Shown here: positions 44,153-54,901 of the stretch, one piece after another
Numbering within the stretch: the first letter of the stretch is position 1
How the letters are laid out: each line of letters begins with the position of its first letter
Source: a virus
Strand: one strand, 5' to 3'
Length of the DNA stretch: 64,000 nucleotides
Virus record (IMG/VR): IMGVR_UViG_3300009506_000006
Location: 40,171-104,170 of that record
Notes under the pieces: model-generated
Told to the model about the DNA's origin: nothing
Seen by the model: only the letters and a program-made list of their open reading frames with translations
Database searches by the model: none
Translations under genes and position numbers: made by a program

Positions 44153-44728
44153 TTATTCTTGGCCATTGCTCTTTTTTAGTACCTCGAGTGGATCGATAAG
44201 TTCGAATTGAATTGGATCCTGTTCCGATGTATCATTCAAACTTCCGTCTTTGCTGGCTTTTTTGTTGCCTTTTTTATTTGACATAACTTCAATCCAACTA
44301 CCGCCTACTTTTTTTTGCAGCTTTTGCAAATCTAAAAGCTTTTTATGCAGTTCTCGATCATATGGCAACTTGAATGCACGTGGCTCCATCTTTCCGGAAT
44401 ACGTATAACGTTTAAATAAATTAAAAACATTGCGTGCCTGCTGTTGATTATCTGGTTTAATATCGCACCAGAAATAAAACGCACCTGGATTTTGGTTGTC
44501 TGGTTCGCTGATTGTCAAAGATATGATACGACTTTTCTCCGGGATCGCTTGCTCTGCCGGCCATCCTTTTAAGTCAGGCAGTGAATAGAAAAATGAAATT
44601 GAAAACCATAGTGCTATGGCTATACCGACACATTTATAAACAATGCGTCCTTTAGAATAAATGACTGACCAGCATAGAAAAAACATTACTAGCAGATAGA
44701 CAAACATGATTGCAGCGGTTGATATCAT
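44153..44728 (-). CDS. Membrane protein (two N-terminal TMs), third gene of the MotA/MotB-like module
   Basis: Two hydrophobic helices then a soluble domain; ATGA overlap with the upstream gene. Confidence 0.7.
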   Translation of the reverse strand: MISTAAIMFVYLLVMFFLCWSVIYSKGRIVYKCVGIAIALWFSISFFYSLPDLKGWPAEQAIPEKSRIISLTISEPDNQNPGAFYFWCDIKPDNQQQARNVFNLFKRYTYSGKMEPRAFKLPYDRELHKKLLDLQKLQKKVGGSWIEVMSNKKGNKKASKDGSLNDTSEQDPIQFELIDPLEVLKKSNGQE

Positions 44729-45318
44729 GGGCTTGCAGTTTCCTTGATTATCACCAATGGTTTAAAAGTCGGATCAAACATCATAATATCACCATTGGCG
44801 TTCATGGTGAACCGTGTTGCTGTTTCTTCTTGCCACTGTGAAGTTAATGTAATGTCTTTGTAGAAAACTGTCGAAAACGACGGATTGATTTTATCGATCG
44901 TTGCGATAACATGAGTGGGCTCTTTTTCGCGTTTGGTATATGCGTGCACATTTAGAGTCCATTCCCCGGGAATAAATCCTCTGATCGTGGTTAATTCCTG
45001 GTTGCGGGGACATTTTACAACCAAACCGTCCGGCATGATGATAGTATCATTGATATATCCAAGATCGTCTCTGTCGATGTGCGCAAAATTTTTTTCTAGA
45101 CGACGAAACCATACAACTCCTCCAAGCGGATCTTCGAGCCAAGTGTCGATATCGTCTGTATTGTCATTTGGCCAAGTTACCGTAATGATATACTCAGCCT
45201 TGTTTTTCATGTTTGCTTTTTGAGTTTGCGGCCGGATTAACATGAAAGATATGCAAAACAAAATTGTTATGCCAAGCAACATGTTAAATAAGAGATCTAG
45301 AAATCCTGTATTCCGCAT
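44725..45318 (-). CDS. MotB/ExbD-like single-TM protein
   Basis: TGFLDLLFNMLLGITILF: Asp in TM helix; soluble domain without OmpA motif. Confidence 0.65.
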   Translation of the reverse strand: MRNTGFLDLLFNMLLGITILFCISFMLIRPQTQKANMKNKAEYIITVTWPNDNTDDIDTWLEDPLGGVVWFRRLEKNFAHIDRDDLGYINDTIIMPDGLVVKCPRNQELTTIRGFIPGEWTLNVHAYTKREKEPTHVIATIDKINPSFSTVFYKDITLTSQWQEETATRFTMNANGDIMMFDPTFKPLVIIKETASP

Positions 45319-45767
45319 GACAGCCCCATCTCCAGGTTATAAATTTGAAGCTTGAGCATGAATGAACAGATAAGTCCAGCTGCTGTTGTGTATAGTGCTG
45401 TTCCCATACCATGCGCCATATTTGCAATTGCCGCCTGCATACTATTAATGTTTGCAGCATCGATCTTGCAGAATACGGTGTCCAATGTGAACAAGAAACC
45501 AAACACGGTCCCGATCATACCAAGAGTCACGAACTTTTCAGCAAACCATTTGGCTGTATTGAGTTGACTTGCAGCAGTTGTTTTAATTTGATATGTTAAG
45601 ATACCGAGCTGTATAGAGAATATGATAAACAAGGTGAGGATCACGAAGCTGAGCTTTGTTAGATCTGCCTGGTTGACTTTTTCGAATAGGCTGTAATAGT
45701 ACATCAAAAAAAGTCCGACACCTATCATGCACATACAGAGCCACCATTTCAGAAAATATCTTTTCAT
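45297..45767 (-). CDS. MotA/TolQ/ExbB proton channel family protein
   Basis: Four hydrophobic helices; TLGMIGTVFG and MGTALYTTAAGL. Confidence 0.85.
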   Translation of the reverse strand: MKRYFLKWWLCMCMIGVGLFLMYYYSLFEKVNQADLTKLSFVILTLFIIFSIQLGILTYQIKTTAASQLNTAKWFAEKFVTLGMIGTVFGFLFTLDTVFCKIDAANINSMQAAIANMAHGMGTALYTTAAGLICSFMLKLQIYNLEMGLSCGIQDF

Positions 45768-46465
45768 GGTTCACCTTCATACGGGACAATGCCAATCTCA
45801 ATAGCACGTTGCATATTGATCCACTCAGTTTTGCGTTCCCATACTTCCCATTGCTCCTTGTCTTTAAGATTGGTTCTGTCCATCAGGATGTTGAAATACT
45901 GATCACGCAACAAATCAAACAACGCAGTCTGGCTTCTGAACTCAGAGCTTGATCCTTGAAGAGACGAACTTGCTTCGTGTATCATAAATACCGTGTTTGC
46001 AACCGCTGTGCGATTATCGAACGCTAGGAACACAGGAACCGCGGCACTGGCAATAAGACCGTTGGCGATAGCATGAAATTTAAAACCGTCCTTTTGGGCT
46101 TGTTGAATCAAACCGTACAACGCGAAGCCGACAAAGGCACTGCCTCCATACGAGTTGATAAACACTTCTGCTTCCGTAATGCCTTTAAGTTTTAAAATCG
46201 AAATATCGTTCCAGAAATCTTTATCTTCGAAGTCTAAATTATCGTAGATTTTCATGAACGCTTTGTCATTTGCAATGAATGTCATGCTCGAGAGCTTTGC
46301 TTCAAGCGGATCTTTTTTGCATTCGCATTGCTCCGATGTCGCATCTTTGTCGGAAGTTTCAGTTTCGTAAACTGTGAATAAGCCTCGATTCGCAGCATCA
46401 GCATGACCGTCGTGAACAGTCATCAAACATATAACGATCGATAATGCCAACAATGTCGTTTTCAT
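45764..46465 (-). CDS. ClpP-like peptidase with signal peptide
   Basis: FINSYGG, GLIASAA (Ser), FMIHEAS (His); N-terminal MKTTLLALSIVICL...HADA. Confidence 0.8.
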   Translation of the reverse strand: MKTTLLALSIVICLMTVHDGHADAANRGLFTVYETETSDKDATSEQCECKKDPLEAKLSSMTFIANDKAFMKIYDNLDFEDKDFWNDISILKLKGITEAEVFINSYGGSAFVGFALYGLIQQAQKDGFKFHAIANGLIASAAVPVFLAFDNRTAVANTVFMIHEASSSLQGSSSEFRSQTALFDLLRDQYFNILMDRTNLKDKEQWEVWERKTEWINMQRAIEIGIVPYEGEP

Positions 46466-46484
46466 TCAACTTCCTTTCATATGA

Positions 46485-46883
46485 TTACTCGATTTCATCA
46501 CGTTGAAATTCCACACTTACATTGTGCACACGCCACCCGCTATGTTCCCCAAGATCTGTTACACTCGGATCGCGGCAGACAAGTCCGTTGAAGCTAGCGC
46601 TTCTGAATATGGCGGATGCCGTGTCAATATACCCGCGTGCCGTGCGCGTACCGGTGTTGACCGGCACATAGATATTGATAGAAATCAGACCGATATAACG
46701 GCGTAAATTGGTCGAACCGCCGAGCGATATTTTGCGTGAGAGACCAGATACCACCTGCAGTTCAACCCAGGCGCTATCGGCTGGTGGATCGAAATCAACG
46801 TTGGCATATTTGATAGCTGTCGTGGATCCCCAATTGGTGGCGAACCGTTGTTCAATATATTTGGCTTCGTTTGAATAGCTCAT
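46485..46883 (-). CDS. Tail terminator protein
   Basis: IKYANVDFDPP...WVEL...GLISINIYVPVNTGT. Confidence 0.85.
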   Translation of the reverse strand: MSYSNEAKYIEQRFATNWGSTTAIKYANVDFDPPADSAWVELQVVSGLSRKISLGGSTNLRRYIGLISINIYVPVNTGTRTARGYIDTASAIFRSASFNGLVCRDPSVTDLGEHSGWRVHNVSVEFQRDEIE

Positions 46884-47368
46884 AGCATTTCAGTCACTGC
46901 AGCAGCCGCTGCCAGACGCAAGATCTCCGGCAAGCGTTGTTTGATTTCTAGGTATGTAAGACCGTAGACATGATATGCCGGTGTCACCGGCCAACCGATG
47001 TATTCCACATCAATTGCATGCTCGATGGCGTTGGACACAATAATTGACTGCACATGTTGCGCAGTCTTAATGATTGACATGGCCATCATGGCTTGTTGAC
47101 GGAGCAGGTGCTTGACGGCTTCGTCTTGGATGCAAATATTTTGTAATTCTTGATTGACGCGTGTTGGTGGTGAGCTGTTCTCAAAGTTTATGCCGATACG
47201 ATGGCTGAGAACATATGATCCAGTGCAGATAGGTGATTTTTTGACTATGCTTTCATAGACTTCCGTTGCAGCGGTTTTGACAATAGCTTCAGCAGTTTGC
47301 GTTATTTCTTTTTTGGCTTGTTCGAACTGTATGCTTAACTGTTGTAAGGTTGTTGCAGCCATGTCCAA
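46880..47368 (-). CDS. HK97 gp10-like neck/tail completion protein
   Basis: VYESIVKKSPICTG...IVSNAIEHAIDVEY. Confidence 0.75.
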   Translation of the reverse strand: MDMAATTLQQLSIQFEQAKKEITQTAEAIVKTAATEVYESIVKKSPICTGSYVLSHRIGINFENSSPPTRVNQELQNICIQDEAVKHLLRQQAMMAMSIIKTAQHVQSIIVSNAIEHAIDVEYIGWPVTPAYHVYGLTYLEIKQRLPEILRLAAAAAVTEML

Positions 47369-47592
47369 GGCGCCTTGTCTATTTCACATCGACCGCTGTC
47401 CAAAAAATCTTTGACGTATTGCGGCAGTTTGTAATCTTCCCGCCAGCATTCTTTTAGATAACGCTTGAAATCTTTTTGGATGACCGGATACATGAATCCA
47501 TAGTGTTCACCGGCAATGTAGAAGAACTCCAGTGTGCTTTTACCGGTAATGTACGTTAGTTTGTACAACCGATCCAGATCATCCATTAACAC
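47335..47592 (-). CDS. Hypothetical protein
   Basis: Packed co-directional ORF. Confidence 0.5.
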   Translation of the reverse strand: MLMDDLDRLYKLTYITGKSTLEFFYIAGEHYGFMYPVIQKDFKRYLKECWREDYKLPQYVKDFLDSGRCEIDKAPWTWLQQPYNS

Positions 47593-47938
47593 TTATGTCC
47601 GCTTTGACCTGACATCCAAGAATTTTGGACACAAGATTAAGCAGTTTGCGCGCTACCCACATGCGCAGTTTAAATTCCCGGGTCAATCGAATACATACGT
47701 CAACTGTTAAGTTTGCGTTCAATTTTCGTAGCTTGTAGTCGATTTGTTTCATAACGTTTTTGTATCAGCTTTGGTAGACTGTAGCCTAAATTTCGCATCT
47801 TCAGCGCGATCTCAGCTGTTTCATGCAGCAGCTGCAGACGTCGTGCCGGACTCGCGACCAGCACTTTCAGCTCGATTTCTTTGTATCGATCTGCAAGTTG
47901 CATGGCGCGTGCCCGCGGGCTGATATCGATCACAGTCA

Positions 47939-48307
47939 CTACGGCAACCTGATTTGAATTATATACATTGCAGCTGCCGGATCTTTGCTGAAATTCATTA
48001 CCTGCCAATTTACCGAGCCGATAACGACAACATCGTTAAGTTTTGGTACAACCGCCAAGTCCAGTGCTGGGACCAGCAGTTTCTGATCGGTTGGCTGAAT
48101 TACGACATTGTCGATTTCCTGGGACTGATACCGGACCAGCAAACCTGCAACACTATAGCTTGTATAGGATTCGCTAACCGCGCCGGTTGTAGTATTGTAT
48201 GTTGCTGATCCGGAAGATTTGCTGCGATATGTAACCGTGGTCAACATATCGTCCAAAATATCGAAAGCTGCCTGCACGGCTGTTTGTACTGTCGTGCCGA
48301 TACCCAT
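47939..48307 (-). CDS. Head closure (head-tail joining) protein
   Basis: YNTTTG...IDNVVIQPTDQKLLV...PKLNDVV. Confidence 0.85.
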   Translation of the reverse strand: MGIGTTVQTAVQAAFDILDDMLTTVTYRSKSSGSATYNTTTGAVSESYTSYSVAGLLVRYQSQEIDNVVIQPTDQKLLVPALDLAVVPKLNDVVVIGSVNWQVMNFSKDPAAAMYIIQIRLP

Positions 48308-48882
48308 TAAGAATAGTCTCCATATAAATCACGATAGATAGCTGAATCAGTTGCACTAAGCCCGCCACCGCCTGCACCGATTCGCTTGAGTGTGCGCGCA
48401 GCGCTGGTGGCTTTAACAGCATAGTAATTAATTATTGCCCACACGGATGCCGGAATGGTTTCCGTACGATCATGTTTGTCAAATTCGATTTCAATGACAT
48501 CAGCTTTGAGCCGATGTATACCGGCGCTGTCAGGATCATCGGTACGATCGGACAGGATCAGGTATCCGGCAAATTCCGCCGTACCGTTCTTAAGCCAGAT
48601 TGGTATGCTGTCCTGTGAAAATAAATAACCATCTCGATCAGTTACGCCGATTCTTGGAAATCGTAGCGCTTGGCTTTCGGAGGTTTTAACGCCTGTCCAA
48701 TCAACACGTTCATCAAACAGGCGTGTGGCCCAGACGATTGCAGCATTCTTTGTCGCCGGCAGAGCATTGGTGATTGAGCTGGAGACGTTGACTTTGCTGT
48801 CCCAGTATGTATTGAATTCTGCCAGTGTGCAGTACGCATTGGCGTCAGATGCACCGGCAGTTGCAATTAATGTAATGGCCAT
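48307..48882 (-). CDS. Head-tail adaptor protein
   Basis: ANAYCTLAEF...ATRLFD...QALRFPR...IPIWLKNGTAEFA. Confidence 0.85.
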   Translation of the reverse strand: MAITLIATAGASDANAYCTLAEFNTYWDSKVNVSSSITNALPATKNAAIVWATRLFDERVDWTGVKTSESQALRFPRIGVTDRDGYLFSQDSIPIWLKNGTAEFAGYLILSDRTDDPDSAGIHRLKADVIEIEFDKHDRTETIPASVWAIINYYAVKATSAARTLKRIGAGGGGLSATDSAIYRDLYGDYS

Positions 48883-48893
48883 AATTCAGTACC

Positions 48894-49202
48894 TCAAACG
48901 TCTTGGACTGTTAACCTAACGATGAACTCTCCATAACTTCCTTCAGCAGTTGTGACATGGCATATAATAAAATATGTTATGCCATCCGTACCGCCTTGGA
49001 CATACGGCCGTATCGTGCTTCCAGAATATGTACACTTGACCGCATCAAGCAATGTTTCAGTCACAGTCGTTCCATTTTCATCTTTAGCCACGAAAGCAAC
49101 AGCTGATATGGTTTCAGTCGATAACCAACTCGAGATGTCAATATCGATAAACCATTTTTCCCATGAGCCTTTATTTTGTGACAGCGTAAAAGTCTCGCTC
49201 AT
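48894..49202 (-). CDS. Small structural adaptor-like protein
   Basis: IDISSWLSTETIS...YVQGGTDGITY...VTTAEG. Confidence 0.7.
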   Translation of the reverse strand: MSETFTLSQNKGSWEKWFIDIDISSWLSTETISAVAFVAKDENGTTVTETLLDAVKCTYSGSTIRPYVQGGTDGITYFIICHVTTAEGSYGEFIVRLTVQDV

Positions 49203-49555
49203 ATGCGGACCTCGTAATCAGATCGCGTCAAAAGCGTGCGTCCGGTTGAGAACACCCACAATCGATAGCGATTTGTCATGCAACAATTAATGTATTCGCG
49301 CAATTTAATGCCGTCAGATCCTTGGCGTATAATTCCACGTCCGAACCGTTTCACGAACCTCTCGCCATTGGCATGATCGATCAGCACGTCGTGCCGAGGC
49401 AGGATGTTGATCGACGGGACAAATGAAAAGCGAACAATCGCATCCGCATTCACAGATTTCCATGTGTTTTCTTTGCCGTCTTCGTCATACTGTTTTATGA
49501 CGACGCCGTCTGCAGTCTCGAGCTCCCATGCATAGACTGTGTTAGGCTTCAACAT
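49199..49555 (-). CDS. Hypothetical protein (likely start MLKPN)
   Basis: YAWELETADG..IKQYD. Confidence 0.65.
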   Translation of the reverse strand: MLKPNTVYAWELETADGVVIKQYDEDGKENTWKSVNADAIVRFSFVPSINILPRHDVLIDHANGERFVKRFGRGIIRQGSDGIKLREYINCCMTNRYRLWVFSTGRTLLTRSDYEVRI

Positions 49556-50735
49556 ACCAGAAATCTCCGAACGTTTTGATAGTCTTATCAGCGAAATATT
49601 CGTCGACTGCTTGCTTGACGCCAGGCCATGAATAGTCATGGCCGATAATTAATTGCTTCGTGATAGGTCCCCACATTTGCAAGTCCGCCTTGCAGCCTTC
49701 GTAACTATGGTCACCATCTATGAAGACCATATCGATTTCGCTGTTCGCAAAAATTTTAAACGCATCTTGGCTGTCCATCTCAAGCAACCGCAGATTATTG
49801 AACATGCCGACATTATCGAGAAACGCCTGCTTGATTTTATCCGGATGCTTGGCTTCGATATGTGCAGCCTGACGTTCGTCAAGCGACCCCATGAAATGAT
49901 CGACAGCATACACAGTGCCTTGCCTGCATCCAGACAGCAGCGCGTGCGTGGAGCGGCCTTTCCAGACACCGATTTCGACGATTATCTTCATCTGCTTGGC
50001 TTTTTTGTACAGCCAATCTAATTCCGGTCCGGTCATCCAGCCCGGAATATCATTGCAATAATGCGTGTCACGCGCAATTTCATTCAAATGCGTTGACAAA
50101 CTGACAATATGACTGCCGACATGCCCAAGCTCGATTGTCGGATCTGCCCATATTTCTATGCCAGCCAAATTACAACGATGACAAAAACTCAAGTCTTCAC
50201 CGAGTTGCTCGTGATTAGGCATGGTCCAGTGATTAAACGGATATCCGTATTGCTCTACCATGCTTAAACTCAATACTTGACTGATCAAATCTTTGCGCAG
50301 CAGCATGTATCCGGTAGCCAGGCCTGCCACTTGGAACGGATGATCTGGAATATCATGTGACTTGATACCGGCAAAGGCATTATGCGCCATATTGTCAGAC
50401 AGATCTTCCGAGAATACCAATGGCCGGTATTGGGTATCTGATCTGGCATAGTAAATCCCACCGGCTACAGGCTTGTCCAGTGCGATCAATTTCATGATGC
50501 CGTTTTCTGGCGATACGATATCGGCATCGATAAACATCAGATAATCACACTGTTGTTCTTTGGCCTGCTGTATAATGTAATTTCGCTGGCTTGACAGCAG
50601 CGCCCCGCGCCGATAGAACGTATTGACCTGGTACCCATTTTCAGCCATGTGGATGCATGCTGTTGATAGCGATGTCACGAACTGGCTGTCGACCTGACTG
50701 TAATGTGGAATACCCACCAAGAGCTTCTTGTTCAT
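49542..50735 (-). CDS. GT-A glycosyltransferase fused to class I methyltransferase
   Basis: FIDADI, ATGYMLL, GEDLSFC; VEIGVWKGRST, FIDGDHSYE. Confidence 0.9.
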   Translation of the reverse strand: MNKKLLVGIPHYSQVDSQFVTSLSTACIHMAENGYQVNTFYRRGALLSSQRNYIIQQAKEQQCDYLMFIDADIVSPENGIMKLIALDKPVAGGIYYARSDTQYRPLVFSEDLSDNMAHNAFAGIKSHDIPDHPFQVAGLATGYMLLRKDLISQVLSLSMVEQYGYPFNHWTMPNHEQLGEDLSFCHRCNLAGIEIWADPTIELGHVGSHIVSLSTHLNEIARDTHYCNDIPGWMTGPELDWLYKKAKQMKIIVEIGVWKGRSTHALLSGCRQGTVYAVDHFMGSLDERQAAHIEAKHPDKIKQAFLDNVGMFNNLRLLEMDSQDAFKIFANSEIDMVFIDGDHSYEGCKADLQMWGPITKQLIIGHDYSWPGVKQAVDEYFADKTIKTFGDFWYVEA

Positions 50736-50743
50736 ACGTTCCA

Positions 50744-50772
50744 TTCTTACCGAGAGTAAGAATTTTGTCAAT
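50744..50772 (-). promoter_or_regulatory. Promoter with perfect operator upstream of the GT-methyltransferase gene
   Basis: TTGACA-16-TAAGAA; TCTTAC-CGAGA-GTAAGA at 50745..50761. Confidence 0.7.
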
Positions 50773-50781
50773 AATTATTGA

Positions 50782-51273
50782 TCAAGTTTCGTCATAACTG
50801 AAGGTCAATGTCTCGGCTGACAATGTTCCCGGGTTAGCCGTGCTGGCTACACCCATCTGCAAGCGCAGGAAGTCGCCTTTATACCCGGTCCCGGTATATG
50901 GTCCGGCGTTGTAGGTAGCCAGATTAATAGAACTTCCAGCCGTAGCTCCAAACACATCAGCGCCGGATATATCCGCATCTGTCTGAGTCTGGAAACTTGT
51001 GTGAGTATCGTAATCAACGGATACGCCAGTACCGAATCCACTGGATCCGTCTGTATACGCCGCCAAATTTTGGATATCCACACTGGGGGCGGAGTTAAAG
51101 TAAAACCGAAGCTGCTTGGTATAACTCCAGTCCTCGCCTCCTGCAGGGATCTGCAGCCGGTTGCTGGTGTCCACCGTGGTTTCATTGGCTGACTTGAAGC
51201 GCACGGTACCGGAGGTCTTGTCGACTCCGGTGTTAGTGTCTGTGACTTCATGAATCTGTACATCTGCGGCCAT
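50782..51273 (-). CDS. Probable virion structural protein
   Basis: Ala/Thr/Gly/Ser-rich beta-type sequence within the structural operon. Confidence 0.65.
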   Translation of the reverse strand: MAADVQIHEVTDTNTGVDKTSGTVRFKSANETTVDTSNRLQIPAGGEDWSYTKQLRFYFNSAPSVDIQNLAAYTDGSSGFGTGVSVDYDTHTSFQTQTDADISGADVFGATAGSSINLATYNAGPYTGTGYKGDFLRLQMGVASTANPGTLSAETLTFSYDET

Positions 51274-51384
51274 GAGTATAATCTCCCACTTAATTTGGAT
51301 GAATCACGGCAGCGCAGCATTGCAATCTAACCGCATTCAATTTGAATTATATGACGACAGCAAACTGTGCATGCCTGCTGTCAT

Positions 51385-53544
51385 TTAAGTTGACGTTGCC
51401 GTCAAGCCAGGTCGTGTTATTGTTGCCGTAAAACCAGGCAATTCTATAGCTGCTGTGGCACTTGGCCTGCTAATGGACGCTGTCAGACTTTCTTTGGCTT
51501 TTGTCCATGCCAGGCTTAAGACAGTAATTGCGTCAAGCAAGGTCGTAATTCTGGATGTGACCTGTGCCGTAATAGCATCGAGTCCAATGAATTTGCTGAG
51601 TGTGCCGTACGCTATGGCATCCAATGCCGTGGTCTTAATTCGGCCATTATAAAGGCTAGCATCGATTGCCACGGTCTTGGTTAGACCTGTTTTATTAAGC
51701 AGGCTGTCTATGCCTGTTACAACTGTCATGGCTTTTCTCAGCGCAGCGTCGATCATGGTGTTGATGGTGTTAACCACATACAGGTGCGCATCCAACTGCA
51801 TGGTGTTGATGATTTGAGACTGCTGCAGCATGGCATCGAATGCCAAATCTTTGGTGACCTGCCCGATTAACAGCGCTTCGATCAGAGCCGAAATTGTTTT
51901 CGAGCCTGTATCAGACAGGATTGCGTCCAGAGAAGCCGTGATGGTTAGGCTTTTGTTGAGCAGCGCGTTCAGATCAACTGTGGCAATGACATTATTGGCG
52001 TTTAGCAGCGTATCGAGACTGACTGTGCGTGCATTCATTTTAAATAACACCGCATCGATGTCGGATGTCACGGTTAATCCAACTGCATGTAGCAGTGCGT
52101 CGATGTTGGACTCCGCAGTTAACCCGAGTTTATTCAACAGCGCGTCTAAGCTGGCGGTTGTTGCCATGCCGGCTTTGTTCAGCAGCGCGTCTATACTGGA
52201 CTCTACGGTTAGACCGCTATTTTGCAGGATCGCATCGATTGCAGCAGTTTTGGTTAAGCCTAGTTTGTTAAGCAGTGCGTCGATTGAGCTTTGCACGTAA
52301 CCGGCTGCCACTTCGTATAGCACGGCATCAAGGCTGTTGGTGATAGTCATACCGGCTTGATTGAGCAGTGCGTCGATTGACAGGCTGGTGGTAATGCCGA
52401 CTTTGTTTAGCAGTGCATCGATGCTGTTGGTAATCGTCGTGCCGGACTTGTTTAACAGTGCGTCCACATCGGTTGTAGTTGTGATCAGCTGCTTGAGCAG
52501 CGCGTCCAGAGACAGTGTGATCGGGATCGAGCCTTGCAGGTAAGCATCGAATGACAGTGTCGATGTAAGTGTCTTCTTGAGCAGTGCATTCAGGTCAACT
52601 GTCTGAGTATATGCAGCTGCTGATATCAGTATTGCATCTAAATCGACAGTTTTGGTTGACCCGACTTTATTAAGCAGCGCGTCCAGATCTGGTGTTTTGC
52701 TGTAAAGTTTGGACAGGATCGCATCGGCATCTGGCGTTTTGAGATTGCCGGCTTTGTTAAGCAACCCATCGATATAAGACGTCTTGAGATTGCCAGTCTT
52801 ATTAAGCAGCGCATCGATATCCGGTGTCTTGAGGCTGCCGACTTTGTTAAGCAGCGCATCCAGATCCGGTGTCTTGCTGTAAGTCTTAGACAGGATTGCA
52901 TCGGCATCTGTCGTCTTCAGATTGCCAGTCTTGTTGAGCAGCCCGTCGACATCTGGTGTTTTTAGGTTGCCGGTTTTGTTAAGCAGCCCGTCAATCTTCG
53001 GTGTTAGCGTGTATGTTGTAGCCTGAGTAGCCGTGAAAACTTGCGGGTATGTGTTGGCGCCGTAGGTCGCAGATGGCGGTGCCAGGACTGTAGCGGCATA
53101 GATCCGAAAGTAGTATGTTGTAGCTTGTGTGACATTCGCCGAGACCGGCACGATAGCGAAGTCTTCTTCATTGACATCGTTTTTGCCAAACTGTGTTGCG
53201 TATGTACCGCTTTCACGATACACACCGCCGTCCAAGGCAGCATCTGCGACTTTAGCGCCGGCTACTGTATTGCCTTCCGTGGCTTGTCCATTGGCATAAT
53301 TAAAATGCGCTGACGGTCCCAATGAGAACCAGTCGGATTGGTTTAGTGAATACTCCAGATACCAGACCGCAGCTGTGCTGTTGGCTCCACCGGTTTCGAC
53401 CAGCTCAACACGCAGCCTGATAATACTGGTGTTGTCTGCCAATATTGGCTTGGCGTTTTCGCCGGTCAGCGGAGTCGTGGGCTCAACAGCGTCGTTAGCG
53501 TACCAGCGCCAATCGCCTTGTACGGGTATGTAAGATGATGGCAT
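51385..53544 (-). CDS. Repeat protein with about 34 tandem 14-16 aa units (x-T-x-x-(L/I)-D-A-L-L-N-K), probable fibre/decoration
   Basis: Counted units from PKIDGLLNK to TLLDAITV; about 175-aa N-terminal domain. Confidence 0.75.
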   Translation of the reverse strand: MPSSYIPVQGDWRWYANDAVEPTTPLTGENAKPILADNTSIIRLRVELVETGGANSTAAVWYLEYSLNQSDWFSLGPSAHFNYANGQATEGNTVAGAKVADAALDGGVYRESGTYATQFGKNDVNEEDFAIVPVSANVTQATTYYFRIYAATVLAPPSATYGANTYPQVFTATQATTYTLTPKIDGLLNKTGNLKTPDVDGLLNKTGNLKTTDADAILSKTYSKTPDLDALLNKVGSLKTPDIDALLNKTGNLKTSYIDGLLNKAGNLKTPDADAILSKLYSKTPDLDALLNKVGSTKTVDLDAILISAAAYTQTVDLNALLKKTLTSTLSFDAYLQGSIPITLSLDALLKQLITTTTDVDALLNKSGTTITNSIDALLNKVGITTSLSIDALLNQAGMTITNSLDAVLYEVAAGYVQSSIDALLNKLGLTKTAAIDAILQNSGLTVESSIDALLNKAGMATTASLDALLNKLGLTAESNIDALLHAVGLTVTSDIDAVLFKMNARTVSLDTLLNANNVIATVDLNALLNKSLTITASLDAILSDTGSKTISALIEALLIGQVTKDLAFDAMLQQSQIINTMQLDAHLYVVNTINTMIDAALRKAMTVVTGIDSLLNKTGLTKTVAIDASLYNGRIKTTALDAIAYGTLSKFIGLDAITAQVTSRITTLLDAITVLSLAWTKAKESLTASISRPSATAAIELPGFTATITRPGLTATST

Positions 53545-53808
53545 TTAGATATCTTCGTAATGAAAACCGCAGCCATCCGGCTGCTCATCTTCCGGCATGG
53601 GCCATAACGCGCATGCCAACGGCCGTTGTGAATAGATTGCGCAGCGGTATGCTACGACGTTGTCAATGGTTTCATAGACCAGATGCTTGCAGTTCGATCT
53701 TTGGCAACATTGTCCGCAACGGTGACAAGATCCTGTGCGCCGTTTGCTGTCGACATACCGGACACTAATGTTAAACACGCCGTCGTATTCGCATATGAGC
53801 TGTTTCAT
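53545..53808 (-). CDS. CxxCxxCC (YkgJ-like) metal-binding protein
   Basis: CHRCGQCC...CKHL...CAIY..RP.AC..WP. Confidence 0.75.
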   Translation of the reverse strand: MKQLICEYDGVFNISVRYVDSKRRTGSCHRCGQCCQRSNCKHLVYETIDNVVAYRCAIYSQRPLACALWPMPEDEQPDGCGFHYEDI

Positions 53809-54137
53809 GAATCGCTTTCTTCAAGCATGATAATGATGTCGGCAGCCAGGTAGTTGATTGCTCCCAACAACTCGCGGATTGCAGCTGGATTATTCATTCT
53901 GGCCGACTCTTTGATTTTTTTGGAGGCCTGCCCGCGGGTAAATCCATGCCCGAATATACGTACGTACTCGCAGATATCCTGTTGTTCAAACGGCTGGTCT
54001 TCCACGAATACATGCCGTTCTTTGCCTTTACCGTTAGCAGCTTGGTCGAGCGCCATGTCAAGGACTTTTTTCAGTGATGCATATGGATCCTGATTGAAGT
54101 CCGGATTAAAGTCCGGTAGAGCACTTGGAATGATCAT
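53805..54137 (-). CDS. Conserved phage hypothetical protein
   Basis: QAANGKGKERH...GQASKK...ELLGAINYLAA. Confidence 0.7.
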   Translation of the reverse strand: MIIPSALPDFNPDFNQDPYASLKKVLDMALDQAANGKGKERHVFVEDQPFEQQDICEYVRIFGHGFTRGQASKKIKESARMNNPAAIRELLGAINYLAADIIIMLEESDS

Positions 54138-54163
54138 GATAAGCTTTCTATGTAAGTAAGATA

Positions 54164-54901
54164 TTATTCAATTACGTCAACTAGTCCCCAAACTCTGGCT
54201 TGATCCGCATCGAACCAAGTTGTTTTGGTTTCCAGTGCTTCCCACTGGTCTTTCGACAATTTGGAATTTTGTACCAATTTGCCGATATAGCGGTCGCGTA
54301 GCAGTCCCATCAGCTCGTTCTGCGACCGGATATCCGAGGCGGTTTCACGTCCCGGCCATTTCCACAGAGCAGCTTCGTGCACCATGAAAATCGTTCCGGG
54401 TGCGGCCAGGCGATTGTTGCATACAGCAAATACCGGAACTGCTGCGCTGGCGATAATGCCGGACGCATGGGCCGTGACACGAAATCCCTTACGCTGTGCA
54501 CGTTCTATTTCGTCGGCTAATGCCAACCCTGAAAACGCATCGCCTCCAGATGAATTGATAAATAAATTGATATCCCGAATGTCAGTCATGTGATACAGAT
54601 AGCATAAATCGTTCCATAGACGCGTTACGTCAGCAACCGACAACCCGGAAAAAATCTTGACAAAGGCTTGATCCTTGGCGATGAAAGACAGTTGAGACAA
54701 AGACCCTTCCGGATTGGGAACCTCCATTGATTTGTTGATTTTTTGACTTCCGCTATCAGTGGAACTGACTTCAACATTGGCAGGTTCGCTGGCTTGGACC
54801 TTGACGATGACTTCTTGCGGTTGACGTTTTTGAATCGGAACAGTTGCCGCACATCCCACAAATAGACACAATGCACCGATAAAGATAATGAGTTGTTTCA
54901 T
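54164..54901 (-). CDS. ClpP-like peptidase, predicted lipoprotein
   Basis: LCLFVGC lipobox; FINSSGG, GIIASAA, FMVHEA, WGLVD. Confidence 0.85.
   Translation of the reverse strand: MKQLIIFIGALCLFVGCAATVPIQKRQPQEVIVKVQASEPANVEVSSTDSGSQKINKSMEVPNPEGSLSQLSFIAKDQAFVKIFSGLSVADVTRLWNDLCYLYHMTDIRDINLFINSSGGDAFSGLALADEIERAQRKGFRVTAHASGIIASAAVPVFAVCNNRLAAPGTIFMVHEAALWKWPGRETASDIRSQNELMGLLRDRYIGKLVQNSKLSKDQWEALETKTTWFDADQARVWGLVDVIE

Follow-up and report, generated by a model that had tools for sequence, protein, structure and literature searches.

The window analysed here, a stretch of 64,000 nucleotides, belongs to a 107,865-bp IMG/VR virus record that was judged to be complete (IMGVR_UViG_3300009506_000006). 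It carries four overlapping minus-strand open reading frames (ORFs), named A, B, C and D, which together span positions 44153-46465. ORF A (45764-46465, 233 aa) is predicted to encode a Sec-exported serine peptidase of the ClpP fold, B (45297-45767, 156 aa) a minimal channel subunit of the MotA/ExbB/TolQ superfamily with four transmembrane (TM) helices, C (44725-45318, 197 aa) a single-pass partner in which a TM helix bearing Asp8 is joined to a TerD/DUF2135-like beta-sandwich, and D (44153-44728, 191 aa) a protein with a two-TM hairpin. These assignments are based on Pfam for A (PF00574) and B (PF01618) and on alignments and AlphaFold 2 (AF2) models for C and D, with Foldseek searches in addition for C. 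The overlaps are of 4 nt between A and B, 22 nt between B and C, and 4 nt between C and D. An initial annotation of the sequence had described the same arrangement of a signal-peptide ClpP-like protein, a four-TM MotA/ExbB-like protein, an Asp-bearing single-TM partner and a two-TM protein, and all four genes were recovered as described.

ORF A starts 19 nt past the tail-terminator gene (46485-46883, identified by PHROG 179) and has a good ribosome-binding site in front of it. Beyond D lie a gene for a 106-aa orphan protein and a glycosylation, sulfation and methylation cassette, and then the tail-tube gene, chaperones and the tape measure. As scans for promoters and terminators at the A-D locus gave nothing above the shuffled-sequence background, the four genes appear to belong to a late operon. 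The window stretch is present in marine-sediment metagenomes, with more than half of its sampled words also found in the runs of a second study. Among GenBank phages, no match was obtained to the 2.3-kb stretch at the DNA level or to B at the protein level.

Distribution of the B-C-D trio

The C family comprised 543 matches among clusters formed at 90% identity, and 1,507 representatives when clustered at 50%. Of 87 viral or metagenomic loci (80 from IMG/VR and seven from metagenomes), about 77 had the order B-C-D, as did 75 of 80 loci from species-representative bacterial genomes; on viral contigs the trio loci were detected by an alignment-based scan, a single-sequence scan having found none. 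The trio, whose three members are strictly inherited together, is the real conserved unit and is common to phages and bacteria, and the recurrence of the same gene order in about 150 independent loci places the arrangement seen in A-D far beyond chance. The initial annotation had taken the ClpP-like protein and the MotAB-like pair as the unit, and had rested the novelty of the locus on their linkage only. Neither point holds, as the conserved unit includes D and mostly occurs without a protease, and as the trio is itself widespread and no description of it was found in the literature on phage MotA, TolQ or ExbB proteins. It is not mentioned in a paper on periplasmic force transducers (PMC12204202) or in the paper on phage AP-16-3 (PMC10460002). 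B-C-D is apparently an undescribed, small three-gene relative of the flagellar-stator, Ton and Tol motors.

The bacterial copies nearest to the trio of the window were found in metagenome-assembled genomes (MAGs) of Desulfobacterales, with 53-56% identity, which suggests this order as the host lineage of the phage. Cultured phages of Rhizobium and Sinorhizobium also carry B-C-D. The genes that flank the trio in about 25 Gammaproteobacteria encode an L,D-transpeptidase of the YkuD type, an exported DUF302 protein and a vWA-FHA protein of 509 aa (L115:4091-4720, L103:4758-5243, L129:7271-8800 and some 20 loci like them). In 21 marine viral loci (L045:2674-3726 and 20 similar) the gene immediately after D encodes a GDP-mannose 4,6-dehydratase, an arrangement that echoes the glycan-modifying cassette downstream of D in the window.

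A few single loci should also be noted. A 527-kb viral contig has, a few genes away from the trio, a gene for an actin-like protein of the Volactin family (L023:8655-9662; Pfam 1.7e-66). In another locus, a gene with a CxxxCxxC motif that looks radical-SAM-like by eye lies between C and D (L043:6630-7409), and in a third (L017) a 288-aa gene without a PDB match is inserted at the same point. In several rhizobiophages the trio is split by homing endonuclease genes.

Features of proteins B, C and D

Protein B scored 29.6 bits against the Pfam family MotA_ExbB (PF01618, cut-off 22.9) and is thus a member of that family. It is made up of four hydrophobic helices with almost no cytoplasmic loop, the bacterial B proteins being longer with a cytoplasmic insert. 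Across 32 homologs, the motifs G-x2-G-T-V-x-G and A-L-Y-T-T-x2-G-L were invariant or nearly so, with G83, G86, T87, G90, A124, T128 and G131 invariant. A profile of the B family aligned with MotA, PomA, TolQ, ExbB and ZorA chains in the PDB, best with MotA and PomA. As all of these matches were weak (E 0.002-0.5) and fell on the same last two TM helices, B is a divergent member of the MotA/ExbB/TolQ superfamily lying outside every named branch. No PHROG family was found for B, C or D. B shares the four-TM topology of MotA and has an Asp-bearing partner, as in the MotAB and PomAB stators, but it lacks their cytoplasmic rotor-interaction domain, C lacks an OmpA-like domain and there is no flagellar context.

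The best named matches of B in PADLOC and NCBIfam were to the ZorA core, and they raise the possibility of superinfection exclusion or a Zorya-like defence, in which an envelope sensor or motor and the exported protease would keep rival phages from entering the infected cell, for instance through the destruction of receptors or entry factors. Exclusion devices built on exported proteases and lipoproteins are known, and one bacterial copy of the trio lies beside NERD and patatin genes. As with ZorAB, a MotA/ExbB-type core is found outside flagella and in a setting of phage-host conflict. However, at 156 aa, B matches the ZorA models through its channel core alone and has no long ZorA-type cytoplasmic tail, C carries no peptidoglycan-binding domain such as that of ZorB, and ZorC and ZorD are absent. 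Of five proteins scanned (A-D and the product of the next gene), only B gave a PADLOC match, which was to this core. The trio is encoded by the phages themselves, including strictly lytic large ones, and in many chromosomes outside defence islands, where its setting is an ordinary one (L,D-transpeptidase, DUF302, vWA-FHA). A role in exclusion also fits poorly with the lysozyme fusions of D described below, and it is considered unlikely.

The N-terminal TM helix of C carries Asp8 within the motif F-L-D-L-L, and this residue was invariant in the initial family alignment and kept in 137 of 138 representatives of clusters formed at 50% identity. MotAB, ExbBD, TolQR, ZorAB and GldLM are ion-driven motors of 5:2 stoichiometry, and Asp8 gives C their hallmark, a conserved acidic residue in a single TM helix. 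Taken with the Pfam score of B, this bears out the earlier proposal that the membrane module is a relative of the MotA/ExbB motors with an Asp-bearing partner. The public gene call of C starts at Met26 and gives a protein of 172 aa that omits the Asp8 helix; the family alignment supports the 197-aa form.

Residues W49, D56, D58, D84, D85, G87 and E108 of C were essentially invariant in 150 representatives, and they suggest a metal-binding or active site. No match to C was found in Pfam at E<=1 (including OmpA, ExbD PF02472, DUF2135 PF09906 and TerD PF02342), PHROG, NCBIfam or PADLOC. Nothing meaningful came from a search of PDB sequences with the C profile, and longer C homologs (eight plus two of 243-257 aa) showed no additional Pfam domain that was informative. 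The AF2 model of C, with a predicted local distance difference test score (pLDDT) of 86, consists of one helix and an all-beta sandwich. In Foldseek searches the sandwich matched crystal and nuclear magnetic resonance structures of TerD with a probability of 1.0 and TM-scores of 0.45-0.53. The best matches of C were models of DUF2135 proteins, one of which shares the helix-plus-sandwich layout (E 2e-9), and by language-model features C matched DUF2135 clusters in the Atlas (0.91). The likeness to TerD and DUF2135 is one of fold and language-model features and not of sequence membership. C further differs from both in that its sandwich is attached to a stator-type TM helix and that no Ter operon genes are present. 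No paper was found in a literature search for 'DUF2135'. As the initial annotation had stated, the partner is without an OmpA domain. The periplasmic sandwich probably binds calcium, and the motifs D-x-D and D-R-D-D-x-G resemble the calcium-binding motifs of TerD, a resemblance to be regarded as a lead only.

Protein D begins with a two-helix hairpin with a positively charged connecting loop, both termini being predicted to lie outside. The hairpin is followed by a small alpha/beta domain with GWP and PRxYKLPY motifs, predicted to be periplasmic, by a disordered Gly/Lys-rich linker of variable length and by a conserved C-terminal motif, F-x2-(L/I)-(P/N)-P-x2-L-x-K. D had no Pfam match, and fold searches with Foldseek and VIA, for which an AF2 model with a pLDDT of 77 was available, returned generic helical hairpins or uncharacterised homologs and no known fold. 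In three loci (L058:735-1622, L059:2982-3869 and L081:2768-3661) the gene after C encodes a fusion of a D homolog (profile E 2e-15) with a C-terminal GH24 lysozyme domain, which matched solved lysozymes at 6e-42, and the ESM Atlas holds a cluster of 86 viral proteins with the same fusion. As D homologs are fused to a lysozyme, the C-terminus of D is placed in the periplasm.

In gene order and parts, the trio parallels ExbB-ExbD-TonB and TolQ-TolR-TolA. Three consecutive genes encode first a MotA/ExbB channel protein with G-x2-G-T-V-x-G and A-L-x-T-T-x2-G-L helices, second a partner that crosses the membrane once and has a conserved membrane Asp close to its N-terminus and third a membrane-anchored protein extending into the periplasm by a linker. 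The trio might then be a substitute by which the host TolQRA or ExbBD-TonB is replaced or hijacked during infection, either to preserve the integrity of the outer membrane or to supply energy for a process there, with the protease merely a neighbour. The layout of D as anchor, linker and C-terminal motif would suit such a role, as would the presence of the trio in the chromosomes of many diderm bacteria. The individual proteins agree less well with it. B consists of four helices with hardly any cytoplasmic domain, the periplasmic sandwich of C differs from the ExbD/TolR fold, and D is a two-helix hairpin without a TonB_C or TolA_C domain. The hairpin helices of D contain no His and so no SHLS-type motif, and neither C nor D matched ExbD, TolR, TolA or TonB in Pfam. 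The trio also differs from Ton and Tol in being phage-borne with hydrolases attached, and their repeated recruitment would be left unexplained. A substitute of this kind is therefore seen as an improbable explanation.

Protein A and other exported hydrolases

Protein A scored 54.5 bits against Pfam CLP_protease (PF00574, cut-off 20.2, E 1.7e-14). Alignment to solved ClpP chains, with E values down to 8e-10, placed the catalytic Ser and His of the ClpP triad in register at Ser140 and His163, and Thr213 at the position of the third residue, Asp. Residues 1-22 form a typical Sec-type signal with a predicted cleavage after Ala22. Only seven close homologs of A were found, and all seven have hydrophobic export signals of divergent sequence, in line with the initial description of the ClpP-like protein as exported. 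A shares its ClpP fold, with Ser and His in register, with phage head-maturation proteases and with SppA and NfeD, and like the latter two it is predicted to function extracytoplasmically and independently of an ATPase. It differs from these proteins in lying outside the head module, in its cleavable signal peptide and in the missing third triad residue, and from SppA and NfeD also in being coupled to a MotA/ExbB-type trio instead of an SPFH/stomatin partner.

In the whole phage genome PF00574 detected two copies, A and A2 (54164-54901, minus strand, 245 aa), the latter a lipoprotein-type paralog with a lipobox Cys17 that was recognised by ClpP-like matches in PHROG and NCBIfam. A2 lies 8 kb upstream of A here. 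In the relative L030 it is directly beside the A-like gene and the trio, the order being an A2 homolog (a lipoprotein, 71% identical to A2), the A-like gene and B-C-D.

The best family matches of A in PHROG and NCBIfam were phage ClpP-type head-maturation proteases, and A could therefore be read as a prohead protease with a mis-called start that happens to lie beside an unrelated membrane cassette. A start at the internal Met (residue 61) would give a typical prohead-protease size, and the A-D cluster does lie within the structural operon. Against this, the hydrophobic N-terminal extension is present in all A homologs despite their sequence divergence. The score of A against the NCBIfam head-maturation model NF045542 was 73.6 bits, below the cut-off of 120, and that of A2 was likewise under the cut-off. 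The head module, with large terminase, portal, scaffolding and major head genes, lies outside the window (G000:C1:1707-7424, L177), at a distance of at least about 13 kb, and is of the scaffold type, which normally has no need of a protease. B-C-D was also directly downstream in every retrievable context of A homologs. Because the head genes are elsewhere and of the scaffold type, the export signal is kept and the score is under the cut-off, A does not appear to be the prohead protease of this phage, and a chance neighbourhood is largely refuted and very improbable. With both ClpP-like genes bearing export signals and a scaffold-type head module, the phage may be without any prohead protease.

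When a sensitive ClpP profile was used, an exported or membrane-anchored ClpP-like gene touching B-C-D was detected in seven distinct loci. Genes of this kind adjoin the trio in the window, L004-6, L030, L038, L106 (a Desulfobacterales MAG contig) and L012. All three retrievable contexts of A homologs (L179-L181) showed ClpP, MotA_ExbB, C-like and D-like genes; the 132-aa gene upstream of the A homolog in L180 had no similarity to the tail terminator of the window phage. In a tree of C, all exported-ClpP loci fell into one well-supported clade together with the Desulfobacterales copies. A ClpP-like gene was not nearby in 79 of 80 bacterial loci or in about three quarters of phage loci. The ClpP protease is an accessory confined to one lineage, that of Desulfobacterales-type phages. 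The co-occurrence of ClpP and the membrane module proposed earlier does recur, in the loci above and in every A-homolog context, but as an accessory and not as part of the core.

Other phages have different hydrolases at the trio. In the 16-3-like rhizobiophages, where the homology of B, C and D was confirmed with profiles, the slot of A is occupied by a signal-peptide trypsin-like serine peptidase that is non-homologous to A, and their C proteins form a separate branch of the tree. The peptidase gene overlaps the start of B by 4 nt in TM3_3_14B and X2_25, and in phage 16-3 it is the first gene in the same overlapping series. A further exported protein upstream of the trio in L050 was weakly trypsin-like by a home-made hidden Markov model and had no PDB sequence match, and its assignment is tentative. 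In L012 (5257-8231) the order is B, a small ORF, C, D, a TM-anchored ClpP-like gene and a GH24-like lysozyme gene, so that the trio and protease adjoin a likely endolysin. In the genome of the window phage, a search for an endolysin limited to three families (Phage_lysozyme, SLT and Amidase_2; PF00959, PF01464 and PF01510) gave no match. Three unrelated hydrolase folds, ClpP-like, trypsin-like and GH24 lysozyme, are thus attached to the trio in different phages.

Possible functions of the trio and its wider gene context

It is proposed that the trio acts as a machine dependent on the proton motive force (PMF) that positions, activates or feeds periplasmic hydrolases on the host envelope, a reading to which we give an even chance of being correct. 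From homology, architecture, conservation, synteny and export signals we infer that B and C would form an ion-driven complex of the 5:2 type in the host inner membrane, with D, the sandwich of C or both as its output arm. By gene order and build, D would take the place that TolA and TonB have in tolQRA and exbBD-tonB. Protein A may be a Ser/His peptidase of the ClpP fold that was recruited away from capsid maturation and exported to the periplasm, where the complex would position, activate or feed it, the targets being peptidoglycan or its protein tethers to the outer membrane. In the lineage of the window phage A would be co-translated with the trio, and the machine is predicted to be expressed from the late operon. 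In other phages the exported hydrolase is a different one, either a peptidase of the trypsin type encoded upstream of B or a GH24 lysozyme that forms part of the D protein.

As other phages place different exported hydrolases in the same slot, an envelope-hydrolase machine is taken as the likeliest function. Fusion to lysozyme, the neighbouring L,D-transpeptidase genes and the predicted late expression direct attention to peptidoglycan or outer-membrane tethers, and to egress or envelope remodelling. The fusions of D and the lysozyme neighbour in L012 likewise point to envelope degradation more than to the options raised in the initial annotation, an ATP-free unfoldase analogue, superinfection exclusion or the dissipation of PMF.

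Several observations weigh against this proposal. Since the majority of B-C-D loci lack a neighbouring protease or lysozyme, the hydrolase is not essential to the trio. ClpP may have been recruited only once, the linkage then being preserved through synteny over about 50% protein divergence, with several losses. One clade has an ordinary cytoplasmic ClpP gene immediately upstream of B, and another has one 2 kb downstream; such neighbours would be unable to meet a periplasmic partner and may be a coincidence. The peptidase activity of A is assumed from its sequence, in which the third triad residue is not kept (Thr213). D resembles neither TonB nor TolA in sequence or fold. Lastly, the trio lies in a late structural operon here and beside replication genes in rhizobiophages and marine phages, and because its setting varies in this way its timing is not conserved.

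A more specific version of the idea is that the trio and A form a PMF-powered extracytoplasmic proteolytic machine, in which a B5C2 motor acting through D would pull on or unfold outer-membrane tethers, receptors or other envelope proteins and feed them to an exported ClpP-type ring. A common motor chassis would then be shared among phages, with the hydrolase (ClpP-like, trypsin-like or lysozyme) swapped, and the whole would be an ATP-free periplasmic counterpart of the AAA+ unfoldases that serve cytoplasmic ClpP. This version is regarded as rather improbable, slightly more so than a defence role or a Tol/Ton substitute. If the coupling to the protease were mechanical, it would answer how regulated proteolysis is powered outside the cytoplasm.

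To our knowledge, only a handful of MotA/ExbB-type motor systems have been described (flagellar stators, Ton, Tol, gliding and type IX secretion, SiiAB and Zorya), and each earlier discovery opened a new area of envelope biology. The trio combines such a core with different partner domains and is found in many hundreds of phage and bacterial lineages. The three unrelated periplasmic hydrolases attached to it provide a first concrete handle on its role, and they suggest a way in which phages could spend the proton gradient of the host on breaking down the envelope, on exclusion or on the control of lysis.

The window region 44153-54901 was also compared with two relatives, L030 (75-7132) and L038 (83-7091). 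In both, a gene block leads straight into ClpP-B-C-D without the neck genes in between. It contains homologs of a 719-aa repeat protein, a 163-aa protein, a glycosyltransferase half, and proteins of 146 aa and 102 aa. The exported or glycosylation-linked genes of this block may form one larger functional block with ClpP-B-C-D.

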